Source: a virus
Length of the DNA stretch: 64,000 nt
Direction: 5' to 3' (one strand)
IMG/VR virus record: IMGVR_UViG_3300035189_000005
Location: 10,182-74,181 of that record
Shown: piece by piece, positions 2,973 through 59,724 of the stretch
Layout of the letters: every line of letters starts with the position of its first letter
Numbering within the stretch: the first letter of the stretch is position 1
Program-made: the position numbers and the translations under genes
The notes under the pieces: generated by a model
Databases searched by the model: none
What the model saw: the letters and a program-made list of their open reading frames with translations, nothing else
Told to the model about the DNA's origin: nothing

Positions 2973-3890
2973 TCAACGGGTGGTCACGTTCTCGCCGACA
3001 AGAAGCTTGCGGTGTTGAATCCAGCCGGATAGGTTGCCGTGCAGTTCAGGATTTTCCCAACCGCTATACAGATCCCGATCTTCTGGGCAGTAAATGTCTG
3101 GACGTGCTTGGTGCTCAGTCGGACTGGCGTGCAGTGGATTGGAGCCTACCAAACGATTGAACAGTTCCAGGTCCCCATCGATAGTTGGATTGAGCTTGTC
3201 GTGGGTCAGATAGCTGGTACGGGCACAACGGGCTGTGGACATCTTGATCAGCACGTTGTAAACCTCAACCGGCTTTGGCATGTCACGAGTGATGCGCCCC
3301 ACTTGCAACATTCGCTCGACAACTGCGTACTCAACGTCCACGTCGATGAAAGGTAAATGCCATTGACCGGGTTGCAGCAACACGGGTTGGTTGGTGTCCA
3401 GCTCTTCCTTGATTTGCCGGGCCAACTCGGCAATCTCAGGTTGAGCATCCGGGTGATCACGCAGGTGCAGGAAGTTATTCCACTCAGTGGCAGTTACCAC
3501 CACAGTGATATGAGCCCATGGCTCAATGACTCGGTTCACAATCTGCTTGTGCAAGCCCAGGTCATTCAGCATCTGCGCTGTGTTTACAGCTTTCTGCATG
3601 CCATCCAACCACACACGCATGGCTTCGCGTTGCTGATCGATGGACAGCTCGTGAGCTGCTTGCATGCCTTTCTGGTTCATGCCCCAGTAAATCGGCATGG
3701 CCGGGTCATCAATGACCGCTTGGATCATCTTCTCGACCGGAATGGCACGACTGGAACTGGCGTTGCGGGAGAACACACGGTGAGTCATGAACTCAGCGTG
3801 GACGAAGCGAGGGTAACGCAACAGCATGGTGGTCAAGCGTTTGCCTGCCGGGCTGATGCTGTCAGCAATGGTCTGTGTGGAGATAGTCAC
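2973..3890 (-). CDS. thyX: FAD-dependent thymidylate synthase (ThyX/Thy1)
   Basis: Motifs RFVHAEFMTHRVFSRNASSSRAIP, HKQIVNRVIEPW, LHASPTEHQA. Confidence 0.93.
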   Translation of the reverse strand: MTISTQTIADSISPAGKRLTTMLLRYPRFVHAEFMTHRVFSRNASSSRAIPVEKMIQAVIDDPAMPIYWGMNQKGMQAAHELSIDQQREAMRVWLDGMQKAVNTAQMLNDLGLHKQIVNRVIEPWAHITVVVTATEWNNFLHLRDHPDAQPEIAELARQIKEELDTNQPVLLQPGQWHLPFIDVDVEYAVVERMLQVGRITRDMPKPVEVYNVLIKMSTARCARTSYLTHDKLNPTIDGDLELFNRLVGSNPLHASPTEHQARPDIYCPEDRDLYSGWENPELHGNLSGWIQHRKLLVGENVTTR

Positions 3891-7693: not shown

Positions 7694-7719
7694 AAAAAGA
7701 GGCCCACCGAAGTGGGCCT
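7694..7719 (-). terminator. intrinsic terminator closing the ncRNA array
   Basis: Minus strand AGGCCCAC-TTCG-GTGGGCCT-CTTTTT. Confidence 0.85.
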
Positions 7720-7736
7720 AAAGGTCGGGAAAAATT

Positions 7737-7908
7737 CGGTGTATTGGTTGGATAACTTCACATTACGGAATCGAACCGTAGTTTCCAGTGCTTCGCTCTC
7801 AGAGGCCCTAACCTTACTCGCCAATATCAGCTTTCCTGGTGAGAACATGTAACTACTGGCTGTCGTACTTGCCACTATACGAATGAAAAGTTACCCACCA
7901 ATACACCG
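7737..7908 (-). ncRNA. tRNA-like RNA A: 15-bp acceptor stem ending ACCA, D arm, T arm, ~65-nt insert in anticodon arm
   Basis: D arm CGUA-UAGUGGCAAG-UACG; T arm UACGG-UUCGAUU-CCGUA; closing helix with G:U pairs only on the minus strand. Confidence 0.75.
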
Positions 7909-7975
7909 TTGCTGCTAGTCCCCGGTGCACTGGGTACGTCAATTAAAGCCCGGACGCACACGGTCTATTCTTTTA

Positions 7976-8122
7976 ATGCATTGGTTGGATGTCCTAACGG
8001 GCAATCTTCGTGCGTTGACTGGTAGCTAAACACAAGTCTTCACCTGCGCCTATTGAACTATTCAATCCCCCAGAGAGCTTTCCCTATCCTTGGCCTTCGG
8101 ACCAGGACATCCACCAATGCAT
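7976..8122 (-). ncRNA. structured RNA B sharing the terminal stem/NCCA module, no T-loop
   Basis: AUGCAUUGG-UGGAUGUCCU ... AGGACAUCCA-A-CCAAUGCAU. Confidence 0.65.
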
Positions 8123-8254
8123 CCTCTTCAAAGGACACATTGGGTGAAACGTGAATGCTGAGCGGTTACATGTGGCAACGGCACAGCGCCTTGTCTAATA
8201 CATAGCGATTCTCCTTTGGTTCAACACTTGGAAGGAAGTGTCCACCTATTTGAT

Positions 8255-8340
8255 TGGGCGGGATCTGTCGCATTGGCACAAGGGCCCCACTGCGAAATGT
8301 TGCGGCAAGATTGCAGGTGATGCCTCATCAACCAGATCCC
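8255..8340 (-). ncRNA. tRNA-sized multi-hairpin RNA E
   Basis: GGGAUCUG/CAGAUCCC closing stem followed by GCCCA; internal hairpins UGAUG/CAUCA and UCGCA/UGCGA; AGUUUAU leader like RNA C. Confidence 0.45.
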
Positions 8341-8351
8341 ATAAACTAAGA

Positions 8352-8472
8352 GGGGGAGTAGGGAGTCGAACCCCACTTCCCTGGCCGCTAAGCCAGCTTA
8401 AATGCATAAGTCAACCAGACAGCTACTTCCAGACTATCCATGGTTCGTCTGGACCTCGCTTGCATTCCCCCC
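8352..8472 (-). ncRNA. tRNA-like RNA C with enlarged D-arm region
   Basis: 5' GGGGGGA and 3' GUGGGG-UUCGACU-CCCUAC-UCCCCC; AAUGCA/UGCAUU stem enclosing ~60 nt; CUGGC/GCCAG hairpin. Confidence 0.65.
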
Positions 8473-8478
8473 ATAAAA

Positions 8479-8677
8479 CTGGCATTGGATGGATGCCCTC
8501 TGTTGCTGGTATCGAACCAGCGTCTCATATGCTCACGACAGTTCTTCCAGAGCCTGTGCGATCTCTTACCTCAACGGAACCCGTCTTCAAGTACCTACCA
8601 CAAGTTGCAACTGCCTAGTGTGAGCGTGAATCAGCGTCCTACCTTTGGACGATACAGAAGACATCCACCAATGCCAG
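8479..8677 (-). ncRNA. tRNA-like RNA D: 15-bp acceptor stem ending UCCA, D arm, T arm, ~83-nt insert in anticodon arm
   Basis: D arm GUCC-AAAGGUA-GGAC; T arm GCUGG-UUCGAUA-CCAGC; GCUCAC/GUGAGC stem around the insert. Confidence 0.75.
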
Positions 8678-8734
8678 CTTGCTGCATTGTAGCTGCCGCT
8701 GGCATTGGGATTTACTGTTTACTCAGGGCGATGA

Positions 8735-8929
8735 TTACTCGCCGGACGCTTCGGAATCGGCCTTGTCGGCACGGTTCGAAACGGTCTGGAAGCTTTCCTC
8801 GACTTCGATGGCGGAACCATCGTTGAAGTTGATTTCGGTGCCGTTCGGCAGTTCCGCGAAGTGGCTGACCTTGGACAGATCGACACGAACACGGAAGCCG
8901 GAACGCAGTTTCAGTTTGGTGAAAGCCAT
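8735..8929 (-). CDS. small FlbD-like-fold protein, paralog 1
   Basis: Pattern VRVDLSKVSHF...GTEINFNDGSAIEVEESFQTV; SD GGAG. Confidence 0.7.
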   Translation of the reverse strand: MAFTKLKLRSGFRVRVDLSKVSHFAELPNGTEINFNDGSAIEVEESFQTVSNRADKADSEASGE

Positions 8930-8987
8930 TTTTGTTTCTCCAGAGATTTGAGGGGTCCATCCCCCCAAGAAAGGGTTGTTGTTGAAC

Positions 8988-9221
8988 TCAGGCTTCTTTA
9001 GCAGAGGCAGAATTGCCCCGGCCAGTAGCCTTGTTGATGAAACCACGCACCGAACGCGGCGTGTCACTTACGTGATACACGCCGCCATTCGATAGACTGA
9101 TGTGAGTACCCGAGGTCACTGCACCATCACTGTCGGTTGCCGGAGCAAAACCAACGATGTGAGCAGTATTCAGGTCCACCTTCAGATTGGTGTCATTATC
9201 GACCACACGGATGTAGGTCAT
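8988..9221 (-). CDS. small FlbD-like-fold protein, paralog 2
   Basis: Pattern VDLNTAHIVGF...GTHISLSNGGVYHVSDTPRSV; SD GGAG. Confidence 0.7.
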   Translation of the reverse strand: MTYIRVVDNDTNLKVDLNTAHIVGFAPATDSDGAVTSGTHISLSNGGVYHVSDTPRSVRGFINKATGRGNSASAKEA

Positions 9222-9757: not shown

Positions 9758-10903
9758 TCAGTTCCTGATGTAGATGACTTCGCCATATGTAGGCACATGC
9801 CCACCACCACGGCCAATCCTGATCCAAATGATGGGTACGTGCACTGTAGGTCGCACCATTGGTGTGACTTCCAGATCCGAGAAGATGATAGCAGCCGTTG
9901 GCTGGTGTTTTTCTATATGCTCACGCACACACACCAGCGATGTACCGCTGCCATGAGCATCAGTCACCACATCAAAGGAATCACTTTCCTCGAAGGTCTT
10001 CTCATCCATGATCCGGGTATCGAACTGAACGAGGGTCAACTTCCGTGGATTGAATGTCTCCTTGATGTACTTCACCTCCGAGTTAAAGCGTAAACGCTCC
10101 TGGGCGGTGATGGATGCAGACACATCAAGGTAGTAGATCAGGTGATCCAATCGGCCCTCTTCCTCGTAGGTCGATGGCAGATACATATTCGTGTAGCGGC
10201 GATTTGGACGAGCCCAAGTGTAGGCAATCTCGGCCAGATCACTGAAGAACTTGTACAGCAGGCCTTCCCACGGAACCACGGGAGTCAGGAACTTCTTGAT
10301 GATCCCTTTGGTTCCACCAGGGACGGTGCCAGCTTGCCCACTGGCCTCGGCTGCTTGCACAGCTTTGACCACGTTGGCTATGCCCTTCAGAATGGTTTCT
10401 TCCGTTGGGTCACGCATATCACCTTTACCCGCACCGGGTACACCCCAGGTAGGCTTGGGCTTGGCACCGCTATTGATGAGCAGGTCGTAGATGTCCTCTT
10501 CGACCATCCTCCCGCCTTTGTCCAGATCTGGATTAAGGCAGCACCACTCGATACCTTCGAAGGTATAGCCTTCCTTCTTCAGATCGTTGTTGATGCGATA
10601 GTCCGCTGCTTGGTTCCAGATCTCTGGATCACGATTGCCACGACGGATCATATGCAACAGGCCTGGATGCCACAGCTCATGGGCCAGCACTGTTTTACGA
10701 GTGGCCGGCTTGAGTGACAGGAACCAATGGGGATTCCACCAGAGACTGACCCCATCGGTTTCAGCGGTTTGCACCGTCTCATCCCAGATGAATTCCAGGC
10801 TGCACATCAATGATCCAAGGAAAGCACCAGTGCCTCCGATGAACATCTGAGCCTTGGTCTTGTTGAGTTCCTCATTGAGAAACTGTTCGTCAATCTCTTG
10901 CAT
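9758..10903 (-). CDS. metallopeptidase (HExxH) plus vWA domain protein (N4 gp25-like)
   Basis: VLAHELWH, WNQAADYRIN, DVSAS MIDAS-like motif, IIFSD. Confidence 0.88.
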   Translation of the reverse strand: MQEIDEQFLNEELNKTKAQMFIGGTGAFLGSLMCSLEFIWDETVQTAETDGVSLWWNPHWFLSLKPATRKTVLAHELWHPGLLHMIRRGNRDPEIWNQAADYRINNDLKKEGYTFEGIEWCCLNPDLDKGGRMVEEDIYDLLINSGAKPKPTWGVPGAGKGDMRDPTEETILKGIANVVKAVQAAEASGQAGTVPGGTKGIIKKFLTPVVPWEGLLYKFFSDLAEIAYTWARPNRRYTNMYLPSTYEEEGRLDHLIYYLDVSASITAQERLRFNSEVKYIKETFNPRKLTLVQFDTRIMDEKTFEESDSFDVVTDAHGSGTSLVCVREHIEKHQPTAAIIFSDLEVTPMVRPTVHVPIIWIRIGRGGGHVPTYGEVIYIRN

Positions 10904-48931: not shown

Positions 48932-51900
48932 ATGGCTGATATCAACTCTATGCTTTCCAAAGCAGCCCAACCTAATGCCATGCTGCCTGGGCCTGAAGAG
49001 GATTATGCTCTGCTCGCTGCACAGCAGCCTGCACCTACCCCAGCTCCGGTTGCCCCACAACCAGCCGGTTCCATTCTTGCCGACAATGGTGTGAACCCAT
49101 GGAACCCTCCGGCCACTGTACCGACTCCTTCCATGTTGCCTACTTTGTCTCAGGACAAGATGGCTGCGGTTACTGCTGCATCCACTGACAAGAAAGCCCA
49201 AATGGCTACCCCTTATCAGATGGCTGCTGGTGGTCCAACTGGTTCCGGCACTCAGAACATGTCCGACTATGAAGCGGATCTCCGCTACATGGACGCATCG
49301 AACCTGACCAAGAAGTATGGCAGCCAAGCAACTTCGATGTTGCTGGATCGTGTCGCTGGTCAGTTCGAATACCAAGCTGATGCCTCTGTTCCCAACCGTC
49401 TCGGCAGTGATGTCACTTATGACTCCCTGTCTTCTGGTCTGTCTGGTCTGGGTAATGCCCTGGGTGGTATTGCTGCTCTTGGTACTGGTGTTGTTTCTAA
49501 CACGGGTGGTGCCACTATCGCCAAGGCACTGGGTGATGCAACTGAATGGGTACAGGGTACTCAATCCCCTGAACTCCAAGCAGCACGCCGAGTGATGGAA
49601 GCGAAGAACTTCCTTGACTCCCGTGATACTCAAATCGAATTCGAAAAAAACAAGAAGACTGATGGCGAGTTCGTTGCCAGTCTCAAACGTGTCGGCCATG
49701 AAGTGGTCAACACTCTGGACAATGCCACCGATAACTCCGCTACCGTTATGGACGGTATCTCTCAGGCACTTGGTTCCCTCTTTGCAGTGGGTCCAATTTC
49801 CAAGGGTATCGCTGCCCTCGTACCTCAATCCACCAAGGCTGGTGTAGGTTTGGCTGCTGCCATTGATGCAGCCTCCGGTTCCAAGTCTGCTGCTCGTGTC
49901 CTGGCCGCTGCCGGTGAGCATGCTCCTGTCCTTGGTTCCATCGCTGCAATTGAAGGTGGTGGTGCTTACCAGCAAGTCACTGCTGACATCATGGGCCGTG
50001 ACCACCAGAAACTTCTGGATGAGTCCCCGATGTACAAGGAGTTGATTGATCAGGGCATGAGCCAAGAGGATGCCAAAGCTACCGTTGCCAACCGCACTGG
50101 TAAGCTGGCTGCTGCTATCACTGCACCTCTCGCTGCTGCCACCGGTACTCTGGTGAGCAAGTTCGAAGGTTCTCCATTTGCTGCCAAGTCTCTGACCCAA
50201 GTGGTAGGCAACATCCTCAAGGAACCAATCGAAGAAGGTATCCAGGGCGGTACTTCTCAGATCGCTCAGAACTATGCCGAACAGCAATATGCTGACCAAA
50301 CCAAGGCTCTCTCTGAGGGTGTTGGTCGTCAGGTTGCTGAAGGTGCCCTCTATGGTCTGGGTATGACTGCTGTCACTCAGGCCCCTGTCGGTGCTGCCAA
50401 GGTTGTGGGTGCTGCTGCACCAATCGTTGGTCGTGCAACTCTGGCTACTGCTGCCAAAGTGGGTGACTCCCTGGCTGCCCGTGCTGATGCACTTCAAGCC
50501 AAGAATGAGGCTGCCAGCCCAGTAGCTGATGCCACCATCCTCAAGGCTGCCACTGAAGCACAGACCACTGCACCTCAAGCTGCTGCAACTCTACAAGAAG
50601 CTGTTCAAGCTCTGCCTGCTGAGAAGCAACCGGCTGCACAGACCTATGTCGATAAGCTGATGACTGCATCAAACTTCGACCCAGCCGAAGTATCTGCTTC
50701 CTTGGCTCCAGCTCTTGAAGGTTCGACCAACCGTGTTGATGCCATCCAGCGTCTGGCGAAGATGGTTGCTGATGCTCCAGAAGGTAGCCGTGAGCAACTG
50801 ACCGCTGGCCTGAACATGTATGACCTGCTGGCTCCATTCGCCAAGATCGTGGATAGCGATCCTTCGGCCATTGATGCCATCCCTGCTAATCACCCAGCTT
50901 CGAACATCATTAAGGAATACGATGCTCTGATGGCTAACGTCCAGAACACCCCATCGGTGTTGAAGGCGTTGGGCACCATCCAAGAGATCGTCGCCAAGCA
51001 AGCTCAGGCTCCGGTTGATGTTACCAATCCTGAAGATGTGCGGAATGCTGCTACTGTTGCTGAGATGGCACCGGACAAGGCGAATCTGGATAACAACGAG
51101 AAGATTCTGTATCAGGCTTCCCAGGGTAACCTTCAGATTACCCCTGAACAGAAAGCTGCTCTGCAAACCTCAGTGGCTATCCTTCGTGCGGCTAAAGCTG
51201 CCGATGAAGAAGCCGTCCGGCTTGGTGACCAATCCAAGGCGGCACAGGTATCCCGTAACGTTCGCACGGAGGAAGGCGAGAAAGGGAAATCGGCGTTGCA
51301 GTACGCCCAGGGTGTCATGTCCGCATGGAAGGCGGGTAACACTGATCTCGCAACTGATCGTCTCGGGGCGATGAAGGATTTCGTCCAGCACATGGACAAC
51401 AAGGTCGCTGCCCTTAATACGCATTTTGCTGGTGGGGACCCGAAGGCAAATGCTGTCACCTACCAAGCACTTGCCCCGAACGGTGAGTGGTTCGACTCCA
51501 AAAAGGGATTGAGCGTCAACCCGACGAAAGAGGGATCGGTAAAGTTTGCACAAACTGTTGCCATGGAAGCCAAGATGTTGGCCGATGTTTACAACGGGTT
51601 GGCTGATGCTTTTCCAGATCTGGGCGCTAAACATTTTGATGTTACCTCGTTGGATTCCAAGCTGAATATTCCAGCAAATCAGGTAGTTGCAGCATCCTCC
51701 CCTGTTGCCGAAACTCCTGCGATTAAGCCGGAGTCTACCGTGGCTAAGCCTTCGGCTCCAGCCGCTCCTGTCAAGGTTGTGACACCTGCCCCAGTTGAAA
51801 AAGTTCCTGCTCCTGCTGCAAAAGTGGAGAAAGCACCCGTTAAGGAGACTGTAGCTGAGCCAGTGAAGACCGGGACTGCTGCTGCATTTCCGCAACTGAC

Positions 51901-54900
51901 AACCGTTACATTTGCTGAGACATTCAAGCTGCCGACTGAGCAACTGACTCATACCATTGGTTCCGAAGCTCCGATGGACTTCGTGTCGAATGTGCTGAAG
52001 TCTCAGACTAATCTGGTGAACTTGGTTGGTAACGCCAAGAAGCAACTGACCCCTGAGATCTCCAAGGCATATGCTGCCCACCTCGATATGGGCCGTAACC
52101 TGACCGACACCATGCAATCCAACCTCTCCAAGTTCCTGGGTGAGAACAAGTTGGGTGAACGCTTCGCTGCCGGTGAGGAAGTGAACCGCTTCGTTGCAGC
52201 CAAGGCCCTGAACATCACCGAGACTGTGGATGGTGAAGTGGTCTATAACCAAGAGTTGGTTGAAGGTGCTGCACTGGCTGGTCTGCAATGGATCATCACT
52301 GCTGACAGCATGGGTTCGAAACTGGATGAGAAGGATGTGGCCGGTATCCTGGGTATCGACGCTGACTTGGTTACCCCAGCTCAACTGGTTGACATGAATG
52401 AAGGCCAGTCTGTTGTCGAAGCCAAACGCAATTTGGCTCAAAAGATCCGCAACTACTGGGGCGTCAAGTCTGACAGCAAAGCTCAGATCGGTAACACCGA
52501 AGGTATCCCTGAGTCGGTTGCTGCTGAACTGATGCGTGCTCTGGAATCTGAAGGCTTGATCCAAACGAAGACTCTGTACTTCACTGCTGATGGCCAACTG
52601 GTATCCGGTGAGAAACCGAAAGGTGTGGTCAAAACCATTGATCGGATCATCCCATCCAAGCTGTCCGAGGAATCTCCAATCCGTGCCTTCCCTACTGCCA
52701 TCGAGATGGCTGTGATGAAGACCCCGGAAGAGACTTCCTACATCGGCTCTGGTCAGAAGATTCCTGTCGCTGACACGCAGATGCGTAACCCTTTGGTTCA
52801 GAACACTGCCCAGCAGAAGGCAGCCATTGAGGCTGAGCAATCTACCCCTTACTACATCCAGCCTCGTATGTCTGGCCTGTACGCAGCTCTGGGTGTGGAC
52901 AACCTGATCCGCATGTTCGGTGTTCCTGATGCCGACGAAAAGACCATGAACATCAACCACTTCAAGTCGGTTGAAGGCAAGAACCGTTCGATCATCGACG
53001 GCTTCAGCCACCTGATGGGCCAGATTCAGCAAGTCTCCAACGTGGGTGATGCTGAAGGTACTGCTTTGGATCAGACTCCACTGTTCTACCCACACAACAT
53101 GTCCCGTGTTGGTCGGATGCAGATGATCGGCAAGTACAGCCCACAGGCCAATAAAATGGTCCGGGAGGCAATCTTGCCTACTCGTTCCACTCTGGACCTG
53201 ACCAACAAGACGGGCACCGACTACAACAACTTCATGCTGGGCATTGCCCAAGCACTGGGTGTCAAAGTCCACAAGATGACCATGGCTGATTCCCGTGCCA
53301 AGGCTGAAGCTTTGCTGACTGGTCCACTGAGCCAATCGGTGGATAACCTGCGTGCATGGCAGAAGGGCTTCAATGCTGACAACGTTCTGTCTGCTGCTGA
53401 CTCGATTGCTCCGACCACTGTGGGTAACCTGATCCAGAACTTCAAAGGTATCGGTCTGACTCCGATGGCGCTGCATGCTGTGATGGAATACTCCCGCATG
53501 TTGGATCATCCAGGTAAGGACTTCACGACCAGCATCTATGTCGAAGCTGATGGCATGACCAACGGCCCAATGAATGCCATGGCTATGTTCACCACCGGTG
53601 AGTTCTCTTCTTCTCAGATCACCAACATGGCGAAGGGTGGCTTCTATGTGAACCGTCCAGACATGACGGCGAACGAATACAACTCGACCCAGGACAAGAA
53701 GGATCTCTATCAGGCCACTACCGATAGCCTTCGTGAACTGATGCGGAACCAACAGGCAAACTTCCAGGCCAACAACCCTGCTGCCAATACCCAGCTCAAC
53801 CATCTGTTCAACCTGATGGAAGAGTTCCTGGGTGGTCAACTATCGGTGAGTGAGACTGGGGACTTGGTTCTGGATCGTGGTGTTGCGAAGAATCCATTGA
53901 CCATCACCCTTTATGGTGCAGGTGCTGGTGGTATCGCTGCCAAGATCGTCAAGCAAATGACTGACTCGATCTACGAGCGTCTGAGCCAAGTGGCCCAAAC
54001 CAAGGCTGATTCCAAGAACTGGGCAGATGCCATGTTCGGTCCTCAGTCGGCTACCCCTGAAGAAGCCAAGGCCAAGCTGACTAAGTTCTCTCAGGCTCTG
54101 GCTGCACTGGGTACTCAGAAGGCTCGTTTGGATCAGAAGGGTAATGTCGTCATCGAGAAAGCTGATGCTGGCAAACCTCGTACTGAATTCGATCCGATCA
54201 AGTTCACGATCACCCCAGAAGAGTTCAAGAACATGCAGTCCAACGTACTGGCCCTGTTCGTTGGCCCAATGCGTGAGGCAATCACCGAAGTGGTGGGCAA
54301 GCCTCTGCTGGATACTGCTGACCTGCTGCGTAAAGCAACTCAGGTCCAGTCGATCTACCTCGAAGCTGCTTTCCGTACCGAGATCGAGAATGCCCTGGCC
54401 GAGAAAGCCAAGGACCCGACTTGGAAGAAAGGTGACTTCCTGACCCAATCGGAACTGAATGACATCTACAAGAAACTCGATCACTTGGCTCCGATGATCA
54501 AAACACCAAACCAGACATTTTATGTGGCTGGTTCTCAGACCTCTGACCTGAATCTCACTGAGTTCGGTCGGGCGTTTGATGGTGCATTCCGCACTCCGGC
54601 CTACGTGTATGGCCCTGCAAACTCTGGCGTATCTGGCATCCCTTACCTGAACATCGGTGCGGGTGACGCAAACATGATGCAGATCATTGCTTCCAAGGAA
54701 GACGCAGTGAAAGGCACCTTGAAGATCTTCGACGGTATGAACATGCCGTTGGACCAGATGCACGAGGGTTCCTTGCAGGCCAACGAAGCTGTGTGGCAGA
54801 CCTGGACAGCAAATCCCCTGCAAGCAGTATCCGAGAGCTACAGCCAGTTCATGGCTAATGCCAACTTGGATATCAGCGAATCAGGCAAGGAAATGCTGGT

Positions 54901-57900
54901 ACAGGCTCTGTTTCCGCCGAAGATGTGGAAAGAGGATGTCCCTATGGAAGACATCCGCTATGCCATGGAGGCAATGACAGGCCAACTGACTACTGCCGTC
55001 GAGCAGATCGAAGCCCGTCACAACGTGATGAACATGGTGAATGTGTCCGTCGATCAGATGGCTGCCGTAGGTGTGCCGTACACACGCCCAGGTAAGGTCC
55101 AATTGAATGGCACTGATCCAGCATCCATTGCTGCACAGATGAACACCCTGTATGCCCAAGAGTTGGCAAAGATCCAGCAAGCCGGTAAGACCGTCGAGTC
55201 TGTCGGACCTGAGATCGAAGCCTTGGCTACCAAGCACAGCACGGGTGTTTCCTTGCTGAACTCTGCTGACTTGGCGAACCTTGCCCAAGCTACTCGTATG
55301 TCGAAAGACCAAGCCGATGTTCTGAATCAGATCACGAAGTCTCTCGCCGCTAAGGAGTACATGGTTGTCTTTGGTTCCGCTGAGCAAGTAGGTCAGTTCC
55401 AGCAGGAAAATGGCTTCACCGCCCCAGCCCAGTTGCCGTCTGGTGAGATTGGTGGTTACACAGTCCCGGCTGATCGGTTGGTCTACTTGATCAATCCTTC
55501 CTCTGAGACTCTGGTCCACGAGTTGATCCATGCTGCAACGTTCAGCAACGTGGAAGCACACTACTCCGGTGATGCTGCTTTCGCTCGCCAGAACCCACAG
55601 GCTGTTGCTGCCATCAAACGTAGTGAAGCCCTGATGAACCAATTCCTTGAGCTGGATCTCACTCAGGTGAGTCCAGCCATGGTTGAGGCTTATGACAACG
55701 CTACTTCGGTGATCAACGATCACCTGCTTAACGGGAACAAGGCCGAAGCTCTTAACGAGTTCATGGCATGGGCACTTTCCAATCGCCAACTGCAAGACCT
55801 GACCAAGCGAACCAAAGCCACGAAACTGGCCCAGATCGCTCAGGGTGTGTGGGAAGCGATCAAGTCGATGTTCTTCCGCAATCGTGAGGCACCGAGCAAA
55901 GGGACTGACATGTTCAGCAACCTGATGTTCAACACTGCCATGCTGATGCAGCGTCAGCCATCGACTGGTGCTCGTTACCAGGAATCGGTTCTGTTCCAGA
56001 ATTCCCAGTACGGTAACAATGACCGTTTGGTTCAAGTAGCTGAGACGTATGGCAAGACCATCGCTCAGTACCTGGGCAAGCCACCAACTCAAGGCCAGAT
56101 TCTTCCATCTGCTGGTGTGCAACAAGCACTGATGAAGTCCTATCAAGTGGGCCAGTTGTTCATGTCCCACGGCTTCAACATGGATGCCCAGCAAGCTTCA
56201 GCCTTCAACCACATCGTCACTGCCCTGGCTACTGAGGCACACATCGACCCGAACTCGATGATGGCAGCCCAGCAGTTGTACTCCCACGTCACCAAGAATC
56301 TGACCGTTGAGTCGTTCATGACTGACCCTGAGAGCACCAATCCTGCTGATCGCTACTACGCCCAGGAGAAGTTCAACGTCATCATGGGTCGTTACGGTGC
56401 AGTCAATGACTTGTCTGGCCGTTCGACTCTGATGCCTTCCTTCTTGGCTCTGGCTACTGTCGATGACGGTTTCCGCAAGATCCTGTCTGAGATGGACCTG
56501 CCCAAGACTTCCAAGAATGAAGCCAAGACTTTGGATGCACTCTTGGAGAACACCGGCAATGCAGTGATGGACAAGCTGTCGGCTCGTATGGCTGGGACCC
56601 AAAAGGCAACCAATGTGCAGCAAGCAATTGATGCCCTGCACAGCCAAGTTGCTGATTTGGTTCAGAATCGTGAGACCTTCATCGACCAGATGGCTTCGAA
56701 GTCTGGTGGTCTGGTTGATCGTGCCAATGAGATCGTGGTTGATGGTTTGACCACCCTCTCCAACGCTGCTATGGCTACTGCAACTCGTGTGCAGAAGAAT
56801 GCATCCAACCGCATCACTCGACTGGCTGCCGGTGCAGTTGCTGGTACTGCTGCAATCCTGAGCCAGACCAATGGTGAGATCCTGTCGAAAGGCATCATGG
56901 CGAACATCAACAAGACGAAGGCATGGGAACCGCTGCACACCCTGATCAACGATCTGGTAGGCCGCACCTCTGATAACGCCAACATCTACGACATGATCAA
57001 GGGTACTCGTTCGGTGATCCAATCCGCCCGTCAACAGTTCCGGGAGCATCTGCCTGAGCTGCTGGCCGAGAAGTTCAGCCGTGAGCTGACCTCTGATGAG
57101 TGGTCCACCCTTCACGCTGGCATGGGCAAGACTGATCTGGCAGCACTGGCTGACACTCGAACCAATGAGGAAGTTCGTAACCTGCTCACTGATCCGGCTG
57201 CAATGACTGCTGAGATCTCCCGCCTTGAGTCTGAACTGAGCAAGTACGACTCGATCTCTTTCCCTTTGGTTCAGAAGAAGGCGAAGCAACTCGCCAACTA
57301 CATGAACACTGGTGTCCCAGGCAACAACCTGCTGCGTAACGCTACTGCTGTCGGCGGTCTGTTTGGTGAAACCAAGCTACTGCCATTCAGTGTCAAGGGC
57401 GAGAAGTACACCAAGTCTCTGGATGAACTGATCTCCCTCTACGCTCTGGACACCCTGCCGAAAGGAACCAAGGAAGCATTGGGTGCCCTGGCTAAAGGTG
57501 AGGCTGAAGGCATGGACTTCTCTCTGTCCTACCTGAAGGGCCAACGTGTTGAGGAACTCCGCAAGACCACGGGTCAAGCGGCAGCCAACGCATACAAAGG
57601 CTACATCCCGAAATCGAACCAAGAGGGTGTGTCTCTGGTGGTTGTTGATGACAGCAACTACGCAGAGATGGCAGCCAAGTCCTACGTTCGGATCGGTGAC
57701 TATGAAGGTTCGAGCATGGATCGTGGTCAGCCTTCGAAGGGTTACTACTTCGCTCCGGTTGCTGCCCGTGCAAGCTTCCAGCAAGGCATCATGCAGAACG
57801 TTCGCCAGACTGCCTCCGGTGTGGATGCAGTGACTGGTTACACCGATGGCATGGTGGCAGGCCGTATCACTGATGCTGCACAGATCAAGCAGATGGCTCG

Positions 57901-59353
57901 ACTCTCCAGCCATGAAACTGGTGCTGAACCTCTTCTGCCAGTGTTCGATGTCAAGGGTAACGTTGTTGCCTACGAGCGTTCGCTGAACCCAGTGATCATG
58001 GAGCGTACCGCTGCTGCTGATCAGCACTTGGCTAAATCCATCGGTGAATGGCGTGGTCGTCAGTCTGAGGAAGGTATGTCTCAGATCTTCAACGAGAAGT
58101 TGGTTGACCATCTGCACGACATGTACACCAAGGACATTGCCGAATCTGCCAGCAACAAGGCTCAGTACGTCAATCTGTTCGGTGGTGGTCTGGACCCTGT
58201 GCTTCAGGATGCGGTGAACCTGATCAACCCTGAGACCCGCAAGTACGTAGAGAACACCTTTGGTTCGGACTTCATGGTTCGCCGTGACATGCTGAACGAT
58301 GCTCTGGGCTACCGTACTGCTTCCATCGGTGATGCCTGGACTGGCACCACTCGTTGGAGCCCAGCAGTGCAGAAAGTCGTGAAGGACACTGCAATCCTGG
58401 CCTTTGGTAACTCTGCCTACAAGACTCTGGTCAACGCCGAGAAGACCTTGAAGAACATCGTCTCCGATGCCCGAGTCCTGATCGCTGTGAAATCGGTAAT
58501 TGTTCCGATGGTGAACTTGATCTCCAATGGTCTGCAACTGAGTGCACGAGGTGTTTCTGTGAAGGACATCGCCAAGGGCATGCCGAAGAAGACTGCTGAG
58601 CTGGAATCGTATGTTCGTAGCCGGGTTCGTCAGATCGAACTGGAAGCTGAAATGCGTGCAACCACTGACCCGATCAAGACACGTCGCATGGAGACTGAAG
58701 TTCAGTCGATCCAAGATGCGAACAAGCGTCTGTCGATCTGGCCTTTGCTGGAAGCTGGTGAGTTCTCCACCGTTGCTGATGCAGGCATGACCCGCAGTGA
58801 GATGATGCTGACCAGCGGTAAACTTCAGCAGTACATCGAGCATGCGGTAAACAAACTGCCGGGTTCGGCTGCTACCCTGGGCCGGTATGCCCTGATCACT
58901 AAGGACACTGCACTGTTCAAGGCATTGCAGAAGTCTGTCGAGTACGGTGACTTCTTGGCGAAGGCTGTGCTCTACGATGATCTGGTCAACCGCCAAGGCA
59001 AGTCGTCGAAGGAAGCACTGGGCCGGATCACTGAAGAGTTCGTGAACTACGACCGTCTGTCTGGTCGATTCCGTGGCACCTTGGAGAGCATGGGCCTCCT
59101 TTGGTTCTACAACTTTAAGATCCGCTCCACTAAGGTTGGCTTGAGCATGATCCGCAACAACCCGGTTAACACCCTGCTGGCAACCTTGACCCCAGGTGTA
59201 ATCACTCCGCTTACTATGTTCGGTGCTCCTGGCCTGCCTACCTATGACAACCTGCTGACCAAAGTTGTGAATGGCACCCTGACTTACTCGATGGGTCCGG
59301 GCCAAGGCCTACGTGCTCCAGAGTTGAACCCATGGGCACAACTGCTACAGTGA
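48932..59353 (+). CDS. virion-encapsidated RNA polymerase (N4 gp50-like, 3473 aa)
   Basis: SRVGRMQ, motif A EADGMTNG, motif B RGVAKNPLTITLYG, motif C KIFDG; no Cys seen; C-terminal HELIH zincin motif. Confidence 0.97.
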   Translation: MADINSMLSKAAQPNAMLPGPEEDYALLAAQQPAPTPAPVAPQPAGSILADNGVNPWNPPATVPTPSMLPTLSQDKMAAVTAASTDKKAQMATPYQMAAGGPTGSGTQNMSDYEADLRYMDASNLTKKYGSQATSMLLDRVAGQFEYQADASVPNRLGSDVTYDSLSSGLSGLGNALGGIAALGTGVVSNTGGATIAKALGDATEWVQGTQSPELQAARRVMEAKNFLDSRDTQIEFEKNKKTDGEFVASLKRVGHEVVNTLDNATDNSATVMDGISQALGSLFAVGPISKGIAALVPQSTKAGVGLAAAIDAASGSKSAARVLAAAGEHAPVLGSIAAIEGGGAYQQVTADIMGRDHQKLLDESPMYKELIDQGMSQEDAKATVANRTGKLAAAITAPLAAATGTLVSKFEGSPFAAKSLTQVVGNILKEPIEEGIQGGTSQIAQNYAEQQYADQTKALSEGVGRQVAEGALYGLGMTAVTQAPVGAAKVVGAAAPIVGRATLATAAKVGDSLAARADALQAKNEAASPVADATILKAATEAQTTAPQAAATLQEAVQALPAEKQPAAQTYVDKLMTASNFDPAEVSASLAPALEGSTNRVDAIQRLAKMVADAPEGSREQLTAGLNMYDLLAPFAKIVDSDPSAIDAIPANHPASNIIKEYDALMANVQNTPSVLKALGTIQEIVAKQAQAPVDVTNPEDVRNAATVAEMAPDKANLDNNEKILYQASQGNLQITPEQKAALQTSVAILRAAKAADEEAVRLGDQSKAAQVSRNVRTEEGEKGKSALQYAQGVMSAWKAGNTDLATDRLGAMKDFVQHMDNKVAALNTHFAGGDPKANAVTYQALAPNGEWFDSKKGLSVNPTKEGSVKFAQTVAMEAKMLADVYNGLADAFPDLGAKHFDVTSLDSKLNIPANQVVAASSPVAETPAIKPESTVAKPSAPAAPVKVVTPAPVEKVPAPAAKVEKAPVKETVAEPVKTGTAAAFPQLTTVTFAETFKLPTEQLTHTIGSEAPMDFVSNVLKSQTNLVNLVGNAKKQLTPEISKAYAAHLDMGRNLTDTMQSNLSKFLGENKLGERFAAGEEVNRFVAAKALNITETVDGEVVYNQELVEGAALAGLQWIITADSMGSKLDEKDVAGILGIDADLVTPAQLVDMNEGQSVVEAKRNLAQKIRNYWGVKSDSKAQIGNTEGIPESVAAELMRALESEGLIQTKTLYFTADGQLVSGEKPKGVVKTIDRIIPSKLSEESPIRAFPTAIEMAVMKTPEETSYIGSGQKIPVADTQMRNPLVQNTAQQKAAIEAEQSTPYYIQPRMSGLYAALGVDNLIRMFGVPDADEKTMNINHFKSVEGKNRSIIDGFSHLMGQIQQVSNVGDAEGTALDQTPLFYPHNMSRVGRMQMIGKYSPQANKMVREAILPTRSTLDLTNKTGTDYNNFMLGIAQALGVKVHKMTMADSRAKAEALLTGPLSQSVDNLRAWQKGFNADNVLSAADSIAPTTVGNLIQNFKGIGLTPMALHAVMEYSRMLDHPGKDFTTSIYVEADGMTNGPMNAMAMFTTGEFSSSQITNMAKGGFYVNRPDMTANEYNSTQDKKDLYQATTDSLRELMRNQQANFQANNPAANTQLNHLFNLMEEFLGGQLSVSETGDLVLDRGVAKNPLTITLYGAGAGGIAAKIVKQMTDSIYERLSQVAQTKADSKNWADAMFGPQSATPEEAKAKLTKFSQALAALGTQKARLDQKGNVVIEKADAGKPRTEFDPIKFTITPEEFKNMQSNVLALFVGPMREAITEVVGKPLLDTADLLRKATQVQSIYLEAAFRTEIENALAEKAKDPTWKKGDFLTQSELNDIYKKLDHLAPMIKTPNQTFYVAGSQTSDLNLTEFGRAFDGAFRTPAYVYGPANSGVSGIPYLNIGAGDANMMQIIASKEDAVKGTLKIFDGMNMPLDQMHEGSLQANEAVWQTWTANPLQAVSESYSQFMANANLDISESGKEMLVQALFPPKMWKEDVPMEDIRYAMEAMTGQLTTAVEQIEARHNVMNMVNVSVDQMAAVGVPYTRPGKVQLNGTDPASIAAQMNTLYAQELAKIQQAGKTVESVGPEIEALATKHSTGVSLLNSADLANLAQATRMSKDQADVLNQITKSLAAKEYMVVFGSAEQVGQFQQENGFTAPAQLPSGEIGGYTVPADRLVYLINPSSETLVHELIHAATFSNVEAHYSGDAAFARQNPQAVAAIKRSEALMNQFLELDLTQVSPAMVEAYDNATSVINDHLLNGNKAEALNEFMAWALSNRQLQDLTKRTKATKLAQIAQGVWEAIKSMFFRNREAPSKGTDMFSNLMFNTAMLMQRQPSTGARYQESVLFQNSQYGNNDRLVQVAETYGKTIAQYLGKPPTQGQILPSAGVQQALMKSYQVGQLFMSHGFNMDAQQASAFNHIVTALATEAHIDPNSMMAAQQLYSHVTKNLTVESFMTDPESTNPADRYYAQEKFNVIMGRYGAVNDLSGRSTLMPSFLALATVDDGFRKILSEMDLPKTSKNEAKTLDALLENTGNAVMDKLSARMAGTQKATNVQQAIDALHSQVADLVQNRETFIDQMASKSGGLVDRANEIVVDGLTTLSNAAMATATRVQKNASNRITRLAAGAVAGTAAILSQTNGEILSKGIMANINKTKAWEPLHTLINDLVGRTSDNANIYDMIKGTRSVIQSARQQFREHLPELLAEKFSRELTSDEWSTLHAGMGKTDLAALADTRTNEEVRNLLTDPAAMTAEISRLESELSKYDSISFPLVQKKAKQLANYMNTGVPGNNLLRNATAVGGLFGETKLLPFSVKGEKYTKSLDELISLYALDTLPKGTKEALGALAKGEAEGMDFSLSYLKGQRVEELRKTTGQAAANAYKGYIPKSNQEGVSLVVVDDSNYAEMAAKSYVRIGDYEGSSMDRGQPSKGYYFAPVAARASFQQGIMQNVRQTASGVDAVTGYTDGMVAGRITDAAQIKQMARLSSHETGAEPLLPVFDVKGNVVAYERSLNPVIMERTAAADQHLAKSIGEWRGRQSEEGMSQIFNEKLVDHLHDMYTKDIAESASNKAQYVNLFGGGLDPVLQDAVNLINPETRKYVENTFGSDFMVRRDMLNDALGYRTASIGDAWTGTTRWSPAVQKVVKDTAILAFGNSAYKTLVNAEKTLKNIVSDARVLIAVKSVIVPMVNLISNGLQLSARGVSVKDIAKGMPKKTAELESYVRSRVRQIELEAEMRATTDPIKTRRMETEVQSIQDANKRLSIWPLLEAGEFSTVADAGMTRSEMMLTSGKLQQYIEHAVNKLPGSAATLGRYALITKDTALFKALQKSVEYGDFLAKAVLYDDLVNRQGKSSKEALGRITEEFVNYDRLSGRFRGTLESMGLLWFYNFKIRSTKVGLSMIRNNPVNTLLATLTPGVITPLTMFGAPGLPTYDNLLTKVVNGTLTYSMGPGQGLRAPELNPWAQLLQ

Positions 59354-59608: not shown

Positions 59609-59637
59609 TTGACAGTCCTCTATGCGATCACTAAGAT
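59609..59637 (+). promoter_or_regulatory. sigma70 promoter for the tRNA
   Basis: TTGACA-N17-TAAGAT. Confidence 0.8.
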
Positions 59638-59646
59638 AGGTCGCAT

Positions 59647-59724
59647 AGAGGGTTCGCCAAGTCTGGTTAAGGCACCGGGTTTTGATCCCGACACTCCTAG
59701 GTTCGAATCCTAGCCCCTCTTCCA
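59647..59724 (+). tRNA. tRNA-Gln (UUG)
   Basis: Cloverleaf: GCC-AAGTCTGGTTAA-GGC, CGGG-TTTTGAT-CCCG, CTAGG-TTCGAAT-CCTAG, encoded CCA. Confidence 0.9.

Follow-up and report, generated by a model that had tools for sequence, protein, structure and literature searches.

A three-strand pairing module at the borders of uncatalogued tRNA-like RNAs in N4-like phages, with a probable role in their maturation

Introduction

How are the ends of a small RNA marked when that RNA must be released from a longer phage transcript? The question is raised by a cluster of tRNA-like RNAs in a 64,000-nt stretch of a viral genome (IMG/VR record IMGVR_UViG_3300035189_000005, positions 10,182 to 74,181; hereafter “the window”), where three RNAs (A, B, and D) each follow a short 5′ flank that had been predicted, from the letters alone, to pair in two mutually exclusive ways. 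The original prediction read this arrangement either as a dedicated maturation signal, acted on by a host RNase or a phage enzyme, or as a co-transcriptional switch controlling CCA exposure or circularization. The window belongs to an N4-like genome, as it carries an RNA_pol Pfam hit and a 3473-aa ORF (48932–59353) of N4 virion RNA polymerase size. Here we ask whether the arrangement exceeds chance, whether it recurs in other phages, and which role fits it best.

Results

One flank, two partners

The three-strand module is present at all three RNAs, with every predicted strand located and all on the minus strand (Table 1). The 5′ flanks of RNAs A, B, and D are 10–13 nt long and end in UUGG. 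Each can pair with the CCA plus trailer of its own RNA, in a helix of 23–27 bp (terminal stem included) from which the discriminator base is bulged, or with a leader strand 20–40 nt upstream, in a hairpin of 11–14 bp. Specifically, the flank–trailer helices measure 11 bp (A), 9–10 bp (B, with a trailer to 7976 or 7975), and 10–13 bp (D, where the trailer reaches 8479, or 8476 with a wobble extension), and the terminal stems beyond the single bulged base measure 15, 10–13, and 14 bp, respectively, in folds and scans. The leader hairpins comprise 11 bp (A), 12–14 bp (B), and 11 bp (D), the 11 nt of the unit D leader being 100% complementary to its flank; each hairpin stops exactly at −1, just before the first base of the RNA, as had been claimed.

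Table 1. Coordinates of the module strands, enclosed RNAs, and adjoining features in the window, from high to low position
Unit	Feature	Position	Strand	Sequence	Remarks
	p64, FlbD-like gene, 64 aa	8735..8929	-		
D	Leader strand	8698..8708	-	CCAAUGCCAGC	Partner is 5′ flank 8678-8668
D	5′ flank	8668..8678	-	GCUGGCAUUGG	Shared strand; last base is −1
D	RNA D, 182 nt, tRNA-like	8486..8667	-		CCA 8488-8486
D	CCA + trailer	8476..8488	-	CCAAUGCCAGUUU	Pairs with flank 8680-8668
B	Leader strand	8132..8143	-	CCAAUGUGUCCU	Two G·U pairs with flank
B	5′ flank	8114..8125	-	AGGAUGCAUUGG	
B	RNA B, 132 nt, A73-CCA	7982..8113	-		CCA 7984-7982
B	CCA + trailer	7975..7984	-	CCAAUGCAUU	
A	Leader strand	7923..7933	-	CCAGUGCACCG	Two G·U pairs
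A	5′ flank	7898..7908	-	CGGUGUAUUGG	
A	RNA A, 153 nt	7745..7897	-		A73 at 7748, CCA 7747-7745
A	CCA + trailer	7737..7747	-	CCAAUACACCG	
	Intrinsic-terminator-like hairpin + U run	7697..7720	-		Closes RNA cluster

The enclosed RNAs are predicted to be tRNA-like. RNA A has a 15-bp terminal stem, a D arm with an AGUGG loop, a T arm (GGUUCGAUUCC), and A73-CCA (MFE −47.4, z −3.0), and RNA D has a 14-bp terminal stem, D-like and T-like hairpins, and U73-CCA (MFE −67.7, z −3.1). None of RNAs A, B, and D matched Rfam (tRNA and tmRNA models included) or was called by ARAGORN, either at gathering threshold or at E ≤ 10, and no riboswitch in Rfam was matched above chance.

Chance pairing accounts poorly for the leader hairpins. 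When the upstream 42 nt were shuffled, helices of the observed length ending at −1 arose 67 (A), 14 (B), and 8 (D) times per 20000 (i.e., a chance of ~1e-3 per hairpin), and across the whole window 87 of ~64000 positions reach 11 bp. Further, the G·U pairs in leaders A and B would be A·C mismatches on the opposite strand, which favors an RNA-level structure in a minus-strand transcript.

Recurrence in other N4-like phages

Seven further copies of the module came to light—in Pseudomonas phages CL, Meara, Zuri, Ebordelon, and Arace01, in Erwinia phage UCB24, and in IMG/VR contig L046—giving 10 instances in eight phages (a further copy of the UCB24 module, in metagenome L047, was not counted separately). 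Loss of the leader complement from homologous loci had been named as a possible refutation; that complement is kept in all seven of these other N4-like phages. The module encloses at least five unrelated, uncatalogued tRNA-like RNAs of 107–198 nt that end in N-CCA. A family of ~170-nt tRNA-like RNAs (F1) is carried by CL, UCB24, Meara, L046, and Arace01, and RNA B has an orthologue in Zuri with which it shares two conserved internal blocks. Moreover, at one locus related phages carry differing cargo RNAs within a shared boundary core (CCAAUGCA / UGCAUUGG).

In 10 of 10 instances a flank–trailer helix of 9–14 bp is contiguous with a terminal stem of 10–15 bp, for a total of 21–28 bp, or about two turns of double-stranded RNA. 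The junction varies: the bulged discriminator (N73) predicted for A, B, and D is present there and in CL, L046, and Arace01, whereas UCB24 and Meara have a 1 × 1 mismatch, and the bulge is missing from Zuri and Ebordelon (two of the seven homologous instances), where the helix is continuous. The leader hairpins have stems of 8–14 bp and loops of 4–19 nt, and in eight of the 10 instances they end at −1; those of UCB24 and Meara stop one base earlier, at −2, provided that their RNAs start with C. The leader strand starts with CCA, as a trailer does, though leader and trailer sequences are not identical.

A scan of both strands of ~1.04 Mb found no further site that combined a flank helix of at least 9 bp, a stem of at least 10 bp, a leader hairpin of at least 10 bp, and a CCA. 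Gapped motifs, run twice against IMG/VR, gave 28 loci that were all chance matches, lying mostly in apparent coding DNA and showing no flank pairing, and two scans of IMG/VR with RNA-core patterns returned nothing, yet contig L046 of that same database fits both patterns in silico. The 1.2-kb region had no blastn match among GenBank phages, and 11 IMG/VR relatives found through the ATPase carry neither the small proteins nor the RNAs. A hammerhead reading of a conserved element with UGAUGAGG was discarded by eye for want of a GAAA core on the same strand.

Co-variation of the three strands

Both helices carry compensatory changes, which bears out the claim that flank, leader, and trailer co-vary. 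At variable positions k = 4–10, flanks form 63 of 70 possible pairs with their own leaders and 65 of 70 with their own trailers, as against means of 5.2 of 7 with foreign leaders and 4.9 of 7 with foreign trailers. The observed totals were reached in 54 of 100000 partner permutations for the leader and one of 100000 for the trailer, numbers that are not true probabilities because the ten instances are related by descent. Between UCB24 and Meara, the leader hairpin differs by two double compensatory changes around an identical loop. A flank U at k = 5, as in unit A and CL, faces G in the leader and A in the trailer, a difference that points to selection on RNA pairing and not to copying of DNA. 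Trailer CCAA and flank UUGG are invariant in all 10 instances while the remaining helix varies, as fits a functional 3′ CCA that needs to pair with the flank. On this comparative sequence evidence, the arrangement of three strands is not a product of chance but has been selected at the RNA level.

Predicted folding order

Co-transcriptional folding prediction, proposed as a check on the module, suggests that the leader hairpin forms first and the flank–trailer helix second. The leader hairpins alone are worth −13 to −25 kcal/mol. At the point where the CCA emerges, the minimum-free-energy fold holds the leader hairpin in eight of 10 instances, and at full length it contains the flank–trailer helix in all 10. 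In Zuri and Ebordelon, the fold at CCA emergence is other than a simple hairpin, and the trailer can fold on itself into a small hairpin. The flip to the trailer helix required 8–12 nt of trailer in the seven instances tested.

The predicted energy balance between the two states differs between instances. In units A, B, and D they lie within ~2 kcal/mol of each other, the leader hairpin of unit B being equal to or slightly stabler than the trailer helix, whereas in the F1 family the trailer helix is ahead by 4–9 kcal/mol, a bias that suggests one-way displacement rather than a balanced switch.

Genomic surroundings

The unit D leader hairpin begins 27 nt downstream of the p64 stop codon, and in D, L046, UCB24, Meara, CL, and Arace01 alike the hairpin lies 3′ of a p64 or p77 gene; in Zuri and Ebordelon it lies downstream of a small cysteine-rich ORF. 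Upstream of units A and B is RNA or decayed sequence, not message. The terminator-like hairpin that ends the cluster is the stretch to which terminator halves of several sRNA models aligned. The 77-aa protein (p77) has six homologues, one of them on a 76.6-kb contig, only in Logan and ENA assemblies, with no match to its family in protein-alignment scans of JGI metagenomes or IMG/VR; its AlphaFold model (pLDDT 70) retrieved nothing below E 0.09 from the PDB with Foldseek, and the downstream 100-aa protein had no phage match by tblastn. A further hairpin motif recurs 5′ of the units and may be a promoter. Of the listed sequencing runs, one DNA run, from a peat metagenome that is probably the source, contains the window sequence, and no RNA run does.

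Discussion

Maturation by exchange of partners

Judged by its conserved architecture, the module is very probably a signal for cutting the predicted RNAs from a longer transcript. Maturation is the most economical of the readings offered originally. The suggestion of a dedicated phage enzyme has no support; the two small conserved neighbor proteins are FlbD-like and not nuclease-like. As to how the signal would work, we tentatively favor, at slightly short of an even chance, a maturation-coupled exchange of partners by the 5′ flank, similar to that of MALAT1–mascRNA, with the flank–trailer helix as the processing form.

Specifically, the flank would pair first with the upstream leader during transcription, forming a stable, flush hairpin that masks the junction. 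Once the RNA is complete and followed by 8–12 nt of trailer, CCA and trailer would displace the leader strand, and the resulting 21–28 bp helix, continuous with the terminal stem and usually with a bulged discriminator, would constitute a precursor of the extended-acceptor or processing-stalk kind. A host endonuclease could then cut at or beside −1/+1, and the 3′ side could be trimmed back to the CCA. RNase P would head the list of candidates, given the tRNA-like body and invariant N-CCA, followed by RNase III, since the helix spans about one turn on each side of the junction. The freed flank, with which the upstream RNA (in most cases the mRNA of a small FlbD-like protein) would by then terminate, would refold on the leader strand, and the flush-ended hairpin could shield that RNA from 3′ exonucleases. 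The cut at −1/+1, the identity of the enzyme, and the protection by the hairpin are the parts of this scheme that we infer.

Several points tell against this scheme. For bacterial RNase P, a paired CCA and a G at −1/−2 are usually unfavorable (owing to the RCCA–P15 loop interaction), so cleavage of the closed helix by this enzyme is not a given. In units A and B, a protective hairpin has nothing obvious to protect; and if the hairpin motif upstream of the units is a promoter, there would perhaps be no upstream message to protect.

Likeness to known systems

The closest parallel to this partner exchange is eukaryotic. In MALAT1, a leader pairs with the mascRNA trailer to give the bulged, extended acceptor stem that RNase P requires; once cleaved, the leader pairs instead with an upstream element and so protects the new 3′ end (PMC8457004). 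The phage module shares the extended acceptor stem of leader and trailer, usually the single bulged junction base, and, as proposed, the three-strand exchange of partners. It differs in that MALAT1 is nuclear and protected by a triple helix rather than a hairpin, that the MALAT1 bulge is on the 5′ side (A at −1) while that of the phage is the discriminator, on the 3′ side, that mascRNA, unlike the phage RNAs, does not encode its CCA, and that the phage upstream partner is predicted to pair before the trailer does, not only after it. More generally, leader–trailer extended acceptor stems with a junction bulge promote cleavage by eukaryotic RNase P (PMC8457004). The yeast and human pre-tRNAs of Lee et al. 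(1997) and Gogakos et al. (2017), as related in PMC8457004, likewise lengthen the acceptor stem by leader–trailer pairing (>6 bp), with a junction bulge or mismatch needed for RNase P; they are not known to have a third, competing leader strand, and their CCA is not encoded. Bacterial RNase P, by contrast, reads the RCCA, which the phage module buries.

A second likeness is to RNase III processing. Around 16S and 23S rRNA and in T7 early RNAs, the site at which a stable RNA is excised from its polycistronic transcript is marked by pairing of its two flanks over ~20 bp or more. The flanks in the phage module are similarly united in a helix of such length, but this helix runs on into the terminal stem and takes in the CCA, and a leader hairpin competes for one of its strands.

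The hairpin itself recalls the designed RNase P riboswitches of Ender et al., in which a hairpin directly before the tRNA masks the site and turns RNase P off, the E. coli enzyme included (PMC8925977). There, as here, the 3′ arm of the hairpin is formed by the last bases of the leader and is followed at once by +1; the designed hairpin is opened by a ligand aptamer, whereas in the phage it is the trailer of the RNA that competes, and a conserved ligand aptamer overlapping the hairpin is not evident. This likeness bears on the original proposal that the leader hairpin is the productive state, freeing the NCCA for RNase P. Given that abutting hairpins turn the enzyme off (PMC8925977), that proposal is doubtful, the freed NCCA having been deduced rather than observed.

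Weighing the alternatives

The designed constructs also lend something to a different role for the hairpin, namely that it would gate or time the RNA alone, the upstream fragment having no part. It would mask the cleavage site and prevent the flank from joining the CCA, with the balance of near-isoenergetic states (under the influence, perhaps, of temperature, a protein, or transcription speed) setting the maturation rate or CCA exposure. A hairpin abutting +1 is a proven off-switch for RNase P in those constructs (PMC8925977), the two states are nearly equal in energy in the three units of the window, and the hairpin is kept in units A and B despite the lack of an upstream message. Yet the loops are neither aptamer-like nor conserved, being unrelated between families, and the predicted displacement in F1 runs one way. 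We consider such a gate unlikely; for the switch first proposed, a co-transcriptional folding order is predicted, but a regulatory sense is unproven and no sensor of a ligand or trans-acting factor is evident. We find it distinctly improbable that the leader hairpin is instead a DNA-level, N4-type promoter for phage RNA polymerase II, with the trailer helix an unrelated closing stem that happens to use the same bases. The window is indeed N4-like, and LUZ7, another N4-like phage, uses hairpins as its early and middle promoters, starting transcription at a G that lies 13–15 nt downstream of the hairpin center (PMC9163698). A G at −1/−2 is at this distance in B, CL, UCB24, Meara, and Arace01, but in the other five (A, D, L046, Zuri, and Ebordelon) the distance is 17–21 nt; measured to −1, the hairpin center is 13–20 nt away over all instances. 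The stems (at least 4–6 bp) and loops (3–4 nt) of the published N4-type promoters (PMC9163698) do not describe the module. Co-variation of the trailer with the same strand would be left unexplained. In addition, the wobble pairs formed by four of the leaders (A, B, CL, and L046) would turn into A·C mismatches on the template strand, the strand on which the N4 promoter hairpin forms.

Alternative helices with one common strand also characterize attenuators, in which case the flank–trailer helix and following U residues would be a giant-loop terminator and the leader hairpin its anti-terminator. UUUUAU directly follows the trailer helix of unit D, five U follow that of unit A after two bases, and three U come next in L046, CL, and UCB24; however, unit B and Meara lack a U tract, a terminator helix with a direct U tract is clear only in unit D, and the cluster is already closed by a proper terminator (7720-7697). 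Because every fold has the anti-terminator forming early and then giving way, termination would be constitutive, and we regard attenuation as highly improbable. Scarcely better placed, and still very unlikely, is the view that these are boundary repeats from or for the shuffling of RNA gene cassettes, functionless in the RNA, with the leader a trailer remnant of a lost upstream cassette. The shared core around different cargo RNAs and the CCA that opens leader and trailer alike would suit it, but helix-specific double changes and wobble pairs would not, nor would the sequence differences between leader and trailer, and a relic would not be expected to keep its hairpin in 10 of 10 copies. Circularization or ligation of the RNA ends, also raised originally, drew no support: while the trailer helix juxtaposes the 5′ and 3′ flanks, cuts at +1 and past A76 would leave the ends four bases apart and not abutting, and no ligase was found among the neighboring genes scanned, so that this role is hardly credible.

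A self-contained displacement device

Partner exchange for maturation, which remains our preferred reading, might extend to a bolder one, to which we attach a rather low but not negligible probability. The module would be a natural, self-contained strand-displacement device whose 3′ trailer is the key that opens a masking hairpin at the RNA's own 5′ site, such that excision is licensed only after full transcription and the discarded flank is put to new use, capping the upstream message protectively at its 3′ end—a phage counterpart of the MALAT1–mascRNA exchange serving uncatalogued giant tRNA-like RNAs that are swapped as cassettes in the N4 group. Leader–trailer helices and hairpin-masked RNase P sites are each already known separately. 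Our literature search for a conserved natural bacterial or viral module joining the two on one strand returned only eukaryotic MALAT1 and the designed riboswitches.

Since at least five uncatalogued tRNA-like RNAs have it at their borders, the module offers a practical handle for finding more in N4-like genomes. Six of its carriers are cultured phages, on hosts that are easy to handle (Pseudomonas putida for Zuri, Meara, and Ebordelon, P. alcaligenes for CL, and also P. syringae and Erwinia amylovora).

Other hairpins in equivalent RNA clusters

Permuted tmRNA genes occupy the equivalent RNA clusters of related N4-like phages (locus L007, by Rfam; JWDelta, by ARAGORN, with the hairpin visible between CCA and 5′ end). 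Their precursors resemble the module in that trailer and leader pair, forming a hairpin from just past the CCA to just before the mature 5′ end. In a permuted tmRNA, though, the CCA piece upstream of the hairpin is part of the same molecule, whereas the phage RNAs are unpermuted and the CCA-like strand upstream of them has no RNA body. In support of the maturation reading, some ordinary tRNAs without trailer pairing also follow a hairpin that abuts or overlaps +1, as seen for tRNA-Gln in the window and a tRNA in L007.

Two Alternative Pairings at RNAs A, B, and D

The tRNA-like RNAs A, B, and D each carry, read on the minus strand, all of the strands described in the original prediction: a 5′ flank that can pair either with an upstream leader strand (11–14 bp) or with the RNA's own CCA and trailer (9–13 bp), the latter helix being continuous with the terminal stem except for a single bulged base. 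The leader hairpins also end, as claimed, exactly at the last flank base (−1). With the upstream 42 nt shuffled, a helix of equal length in the same register arose in 67 (A), 14 (B), and 8 (D) of 20000 cases, and an 11-bp helix is reached at only 87 of the ~64000 window positions. Leaders A and B contain G.U pairs where the other strand would have A.C, which favors a structure of the minus-strand RNA. Long terminal stems mark the folds of all three RNAs, joined in A and D by D-like and T-like hairpins; none of the three has a match in Rfam or ARAGORN.

The units lie in a ~1 kb minus-strand cluster without a convincing protein-coding gene; an 82-aa ORF listed at 8712–8960 was rejected as a wrong frame of the 64-aa gene. 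RNA C lacks an encoded CCA, a leader hairpin, and trailer pairing.

Coordinates of the RNA units and other elements in the window
Feature	Position	Strand	Description
Unit A	leader 7933–7923; flank 7908–7898; RNA 7897–7745; CCA 7747–7745; trailer to 7737	−	RNA of 153 nt
Unit B	leader 8143–8132; flank 8125–8114; RNA 8113–7982; CCA 7984–7982; trailer to 7976	−	RNA of 132 nt
Unit D	leader 8708–8698; flank 8678–8668; RNA 8667–8486; CCA 8488–8486; trailer to 8479	−	RNA of 182 nt
RNA C	8472–8350	−	tRNA-like; 7-bp acceptor-like stem, 6-bp T arm, UUCGACU loop
RNA cluster	64-aa gene stop codon (gene 8929–8735) to 7720–7697	−	ends at terminator-like hairpin and U run
p77 and p64 proteins (77 and 64 aa)	8988–9221 and 8735–8929	−	paralogous; match Pfam FlbD (PF06289)
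p64 5′ UTR copy	8253–8195	−	AUAGGU, CCUUCC-loop hairpin, Shine-Dalgarno, AUG, two codons, stop
81-nt element	8340–8260	−	8–10 bp closing stem
TCTTGGGG-N3-10-CCC motif	4873–4854, 8970–8952, 9251–9235	−	a small gene follows directly at each site
tRNA-Gln leader hairpin	59616–59652	+	14 bp, −22 kcal/mol; adjoins tRNA-Gln 59647–59724

Genome Setting and Homologous Loci

The virus record, of which the window is part, is 74,181 bp long with direct terminal repeats, and by its gene content the phage is an N4-like podovirus. Three features mark it as such: a 3473-aa ORF (48932–59353) that we take, from size alone, to be the virion RNA polymerase; a piece of T7-like RNA polymerase; and a dCTP deaminase, a vWA/'HNH' protein, and an ATPase arranged in N4 order. 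Only one sequencing run, from a peat metagenome, contains the stretch, and the runs listed include no RNA runs.

The RNA region is absent from the closest IMG/VR relatives reached via the ATPase. The 77-aa and 64-aa proteins led instead to phages CL (Pseudomonas), UCB24 (Erwinia), Meara (Pseudomonas), and the IMG/VR locus L046, and an RNA-core pattern search led to two metagenome contigs; three further instances (Zuri, Ebordelon, and Arace01) lie in the gap downstream of dCTP deaminase. Pattern scans of IMG/VR viral contigs were blank for two patterns that L046 matches in silico, a blank that does not equal absence. The same three border strands surround every homologous RNA, the leader complement on which the original prediction depended being kept throughout. 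What they enclose varies: CL, UCB24, Meara, L046, and Arace01 carry a ~170-nt tRNA-like RNA (family F1) whose consensus fold shows compensatory changes at 13 pairs, the Zuri RNA is the orthologue of RNA B, and the Ebordelon body is yet another. In CL, UCB24, and Meara, both small FlbD-like genes keep synteny with the RNAs; a p64-like gene adjoins the RNA in L046 and Arace01. A search of both strands across ~1.04 Mb of related phage sequence gave no further site that has at once a flank of at least 9 bp, a stem of at least 10 bp, a leader of at least 10 bp, and CCA.

Co-variation of the Three Strands

Counting outward from −1 (position 0), positions 0–3 are invariant in flank (UUGG) and trailer (CCAA) in 10/10 instances, and the leader there reads CCAA in eight, with a single CCAG and a single CCGA. 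Over positions 4–10, which vary, leaders form 63/70 pairs with their own flank (foreign flanks, mean 5.2/7) and trailers 65/70 (foreign, mean 4.9/7), totals reached by 54 and 1 of 100000 permutations, respectively—figures that measure fit rather than probability, as the ten instances share descent. Among these related instances, the co-variation of all three strands is borne out. A flank U at position 5, as in unit A and CL, faces G in the leader and A in the trailer; DNA copying therefore does not keep both partners alike. The helix around CCAA varies but CCAA itself does not, an argument for a functional 3′ end at the CCA and for selection on its pairing with the flank. Between UCB24 and Meara, whose 11-nt hairpin loops and trailers are identical, the leader hairpin differs by two double compensatory changes (G-C to A-U and U-A to C-G), which argues for selection on this hairpin as well.

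Predicted Folding Order

Thermodynamic folds, which leave out tertiary structure and proteins, predict the co-transcriptional order leader hairpin first, flank–trailer helix second. Leader hairpins alone reach −13 to −25 kcal/mol; in transcripts folded up to the CCA the hairpin is in the minimum free energy (MFE) structure of 8/10 instances, the MFE flips after 8–12 nt of trailer are added (seven instances tested), and at full length it is the flank–trailer helix in 10/10. Blocking either strand in turn gives the flank–trailer state an advantage (kcal/mol) of 0.8 (A), 1.6 (D), 4.3 (CL), 3.7 (L046), 6.2 (UCB24), 8.8 (Meara), 2.1 (Zuri), 6.4 (Ebordelon), and 5.3 (Arace01), the exception being unit B, where the hairpin state is favored by 0.6. 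Bases of the hairpin loop are further pairing partners of the trailer in UCB24 and Meara and would serve as a toehold. The trailers of Zuri (L075, 8847–8862) and Ebordelon (L074, 9041–9056) can form a 5-bp self-hairpin with a GCAA loop (CCAAU-GCAA-RUUGG), whose 3′ half can pair with the displaced leader strand and would then be a fourth strand in the exchange.

A Possible Partner Exchange and Its Alternatives

Human MALAT1 offers a parallel: its tRNA-like mascRNA has a leader that pairs with the trailer, RNase P needs the extended acceptor stem with its bulged base, and after the cut the leader pairs with an upstream element and shields the new 3′ end (PMC8457004). It is quite possible, at somewhat under an even chance in our judgment, that the phage module works by the same exchange, a hairpin taking the role of the MALAT1 triple helix. 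The hairpin would form first and mask the junction, the trailer of the finished RNA would displace the leader strand, the junction would be cut, and the flank would return to the leader strand, leaving the upstream RNA with a flush hairpin as its 3′ end. Such an exchange would explain why the hairpin ends exactly at −1, why the leader strand imitates the trailer, and why a small protein gene lies directly before most units. The hairpin as the productive form, as first proposed, is doubtful, since a hairpin abutting the tRNA masks the RNase P site in designed constructs (PMC8925977). Of the enzymes proposed, RNase P and RNase III are both candidates: the tRNA-like bodies and N-CCA point to the first, and about one turn of helix to either side of the junction points to the second; a dedicated phage enzyme found no support (the two conserved small neighbor proteins are FlbD-like), nor did circularization.

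A purely regulatory gate, with no role for the upstream fragment, is a less likely reading, to be considered especially for units A and B. Hairpin promoters acting at the DNA level have a precedent among N4-like phages in LUZ7, where a G start lies 13–15 nt from the hairpin center (PMC9163698), but the stem and loop sizes and wobble pairs here do not fit, and the trailer co-variation would be left unexplained, so that this origin is improbable. Cargo RNAs have clearly been exchanged between phages at conserved borders, as a relic of cassette shuffling would have it, yet the compensatory changes make such a relic alone still less probable, and a transcription attenuator, for which U tracts are missing in unit B and Meara, is less credible again.

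Neighboring Elements

FlbD (PF06289) matches 5/8 members of the p77 family (best E 2e-4) and 2/4 of the p64 family (best E 3e-5); a model of the 77-aa protein yielded no structural relative in the PDB. Before unit B, the copy of the conserved p64 5′ UTR has the look of what remains of a third p64-like gene. Five overlapping matches to TCTTGGGG-N3-10-CCC are listed (0.37 expected), and they fall at three minus-strand sites. UCB24, Meara, Zuri, and Axy11 likewise have the motif ahead of their homologous genes and RNA units; it is a candidate clade-specific promoter or processing hairpin.

A point in favor of the exchange is that ordinary tRNAs behind genes, too, have a hairpin in front that abuts or overlaps the first RNA base (+1): the window's only canonical tRNA, tRNA-Gln, and a tRNA of the related N4-like locus L007. 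The tRNA-Gln element lies between a small ORF and a terminator; the 3′ arm of its hairpin takes in tRNA +1 to +6 and its leader strand imitates the 3′ acceptor strand, the same theme shifted by a few bases.

The 81-nt element contains UGAUGAGG and is conserved inside the same RNA cluster in the window phage, CL (L041, 5605–5691), and Meara (L043, ~3342–3432); it has no Rfam match, and a hammerhead was rejected by eye on either strand. Among related N4-like phages, equivalent clusters hold two-piece (permuted) tmRNA genes in L007 (3887–4249; alphaproteobacterial type, Rfam), JWDelta (L045, 3663–4348; ARAGORN), and Axy11 (L044, ~3300–3600; by eye). CL (L041, 5367–5441) and Meara (L043, ~3250–3335; by eye) have a tRNA-like gene with an abnormal 6- or 8-nt anticodon loop, reported for CL as 'tRNA-???' by ARAGORN.
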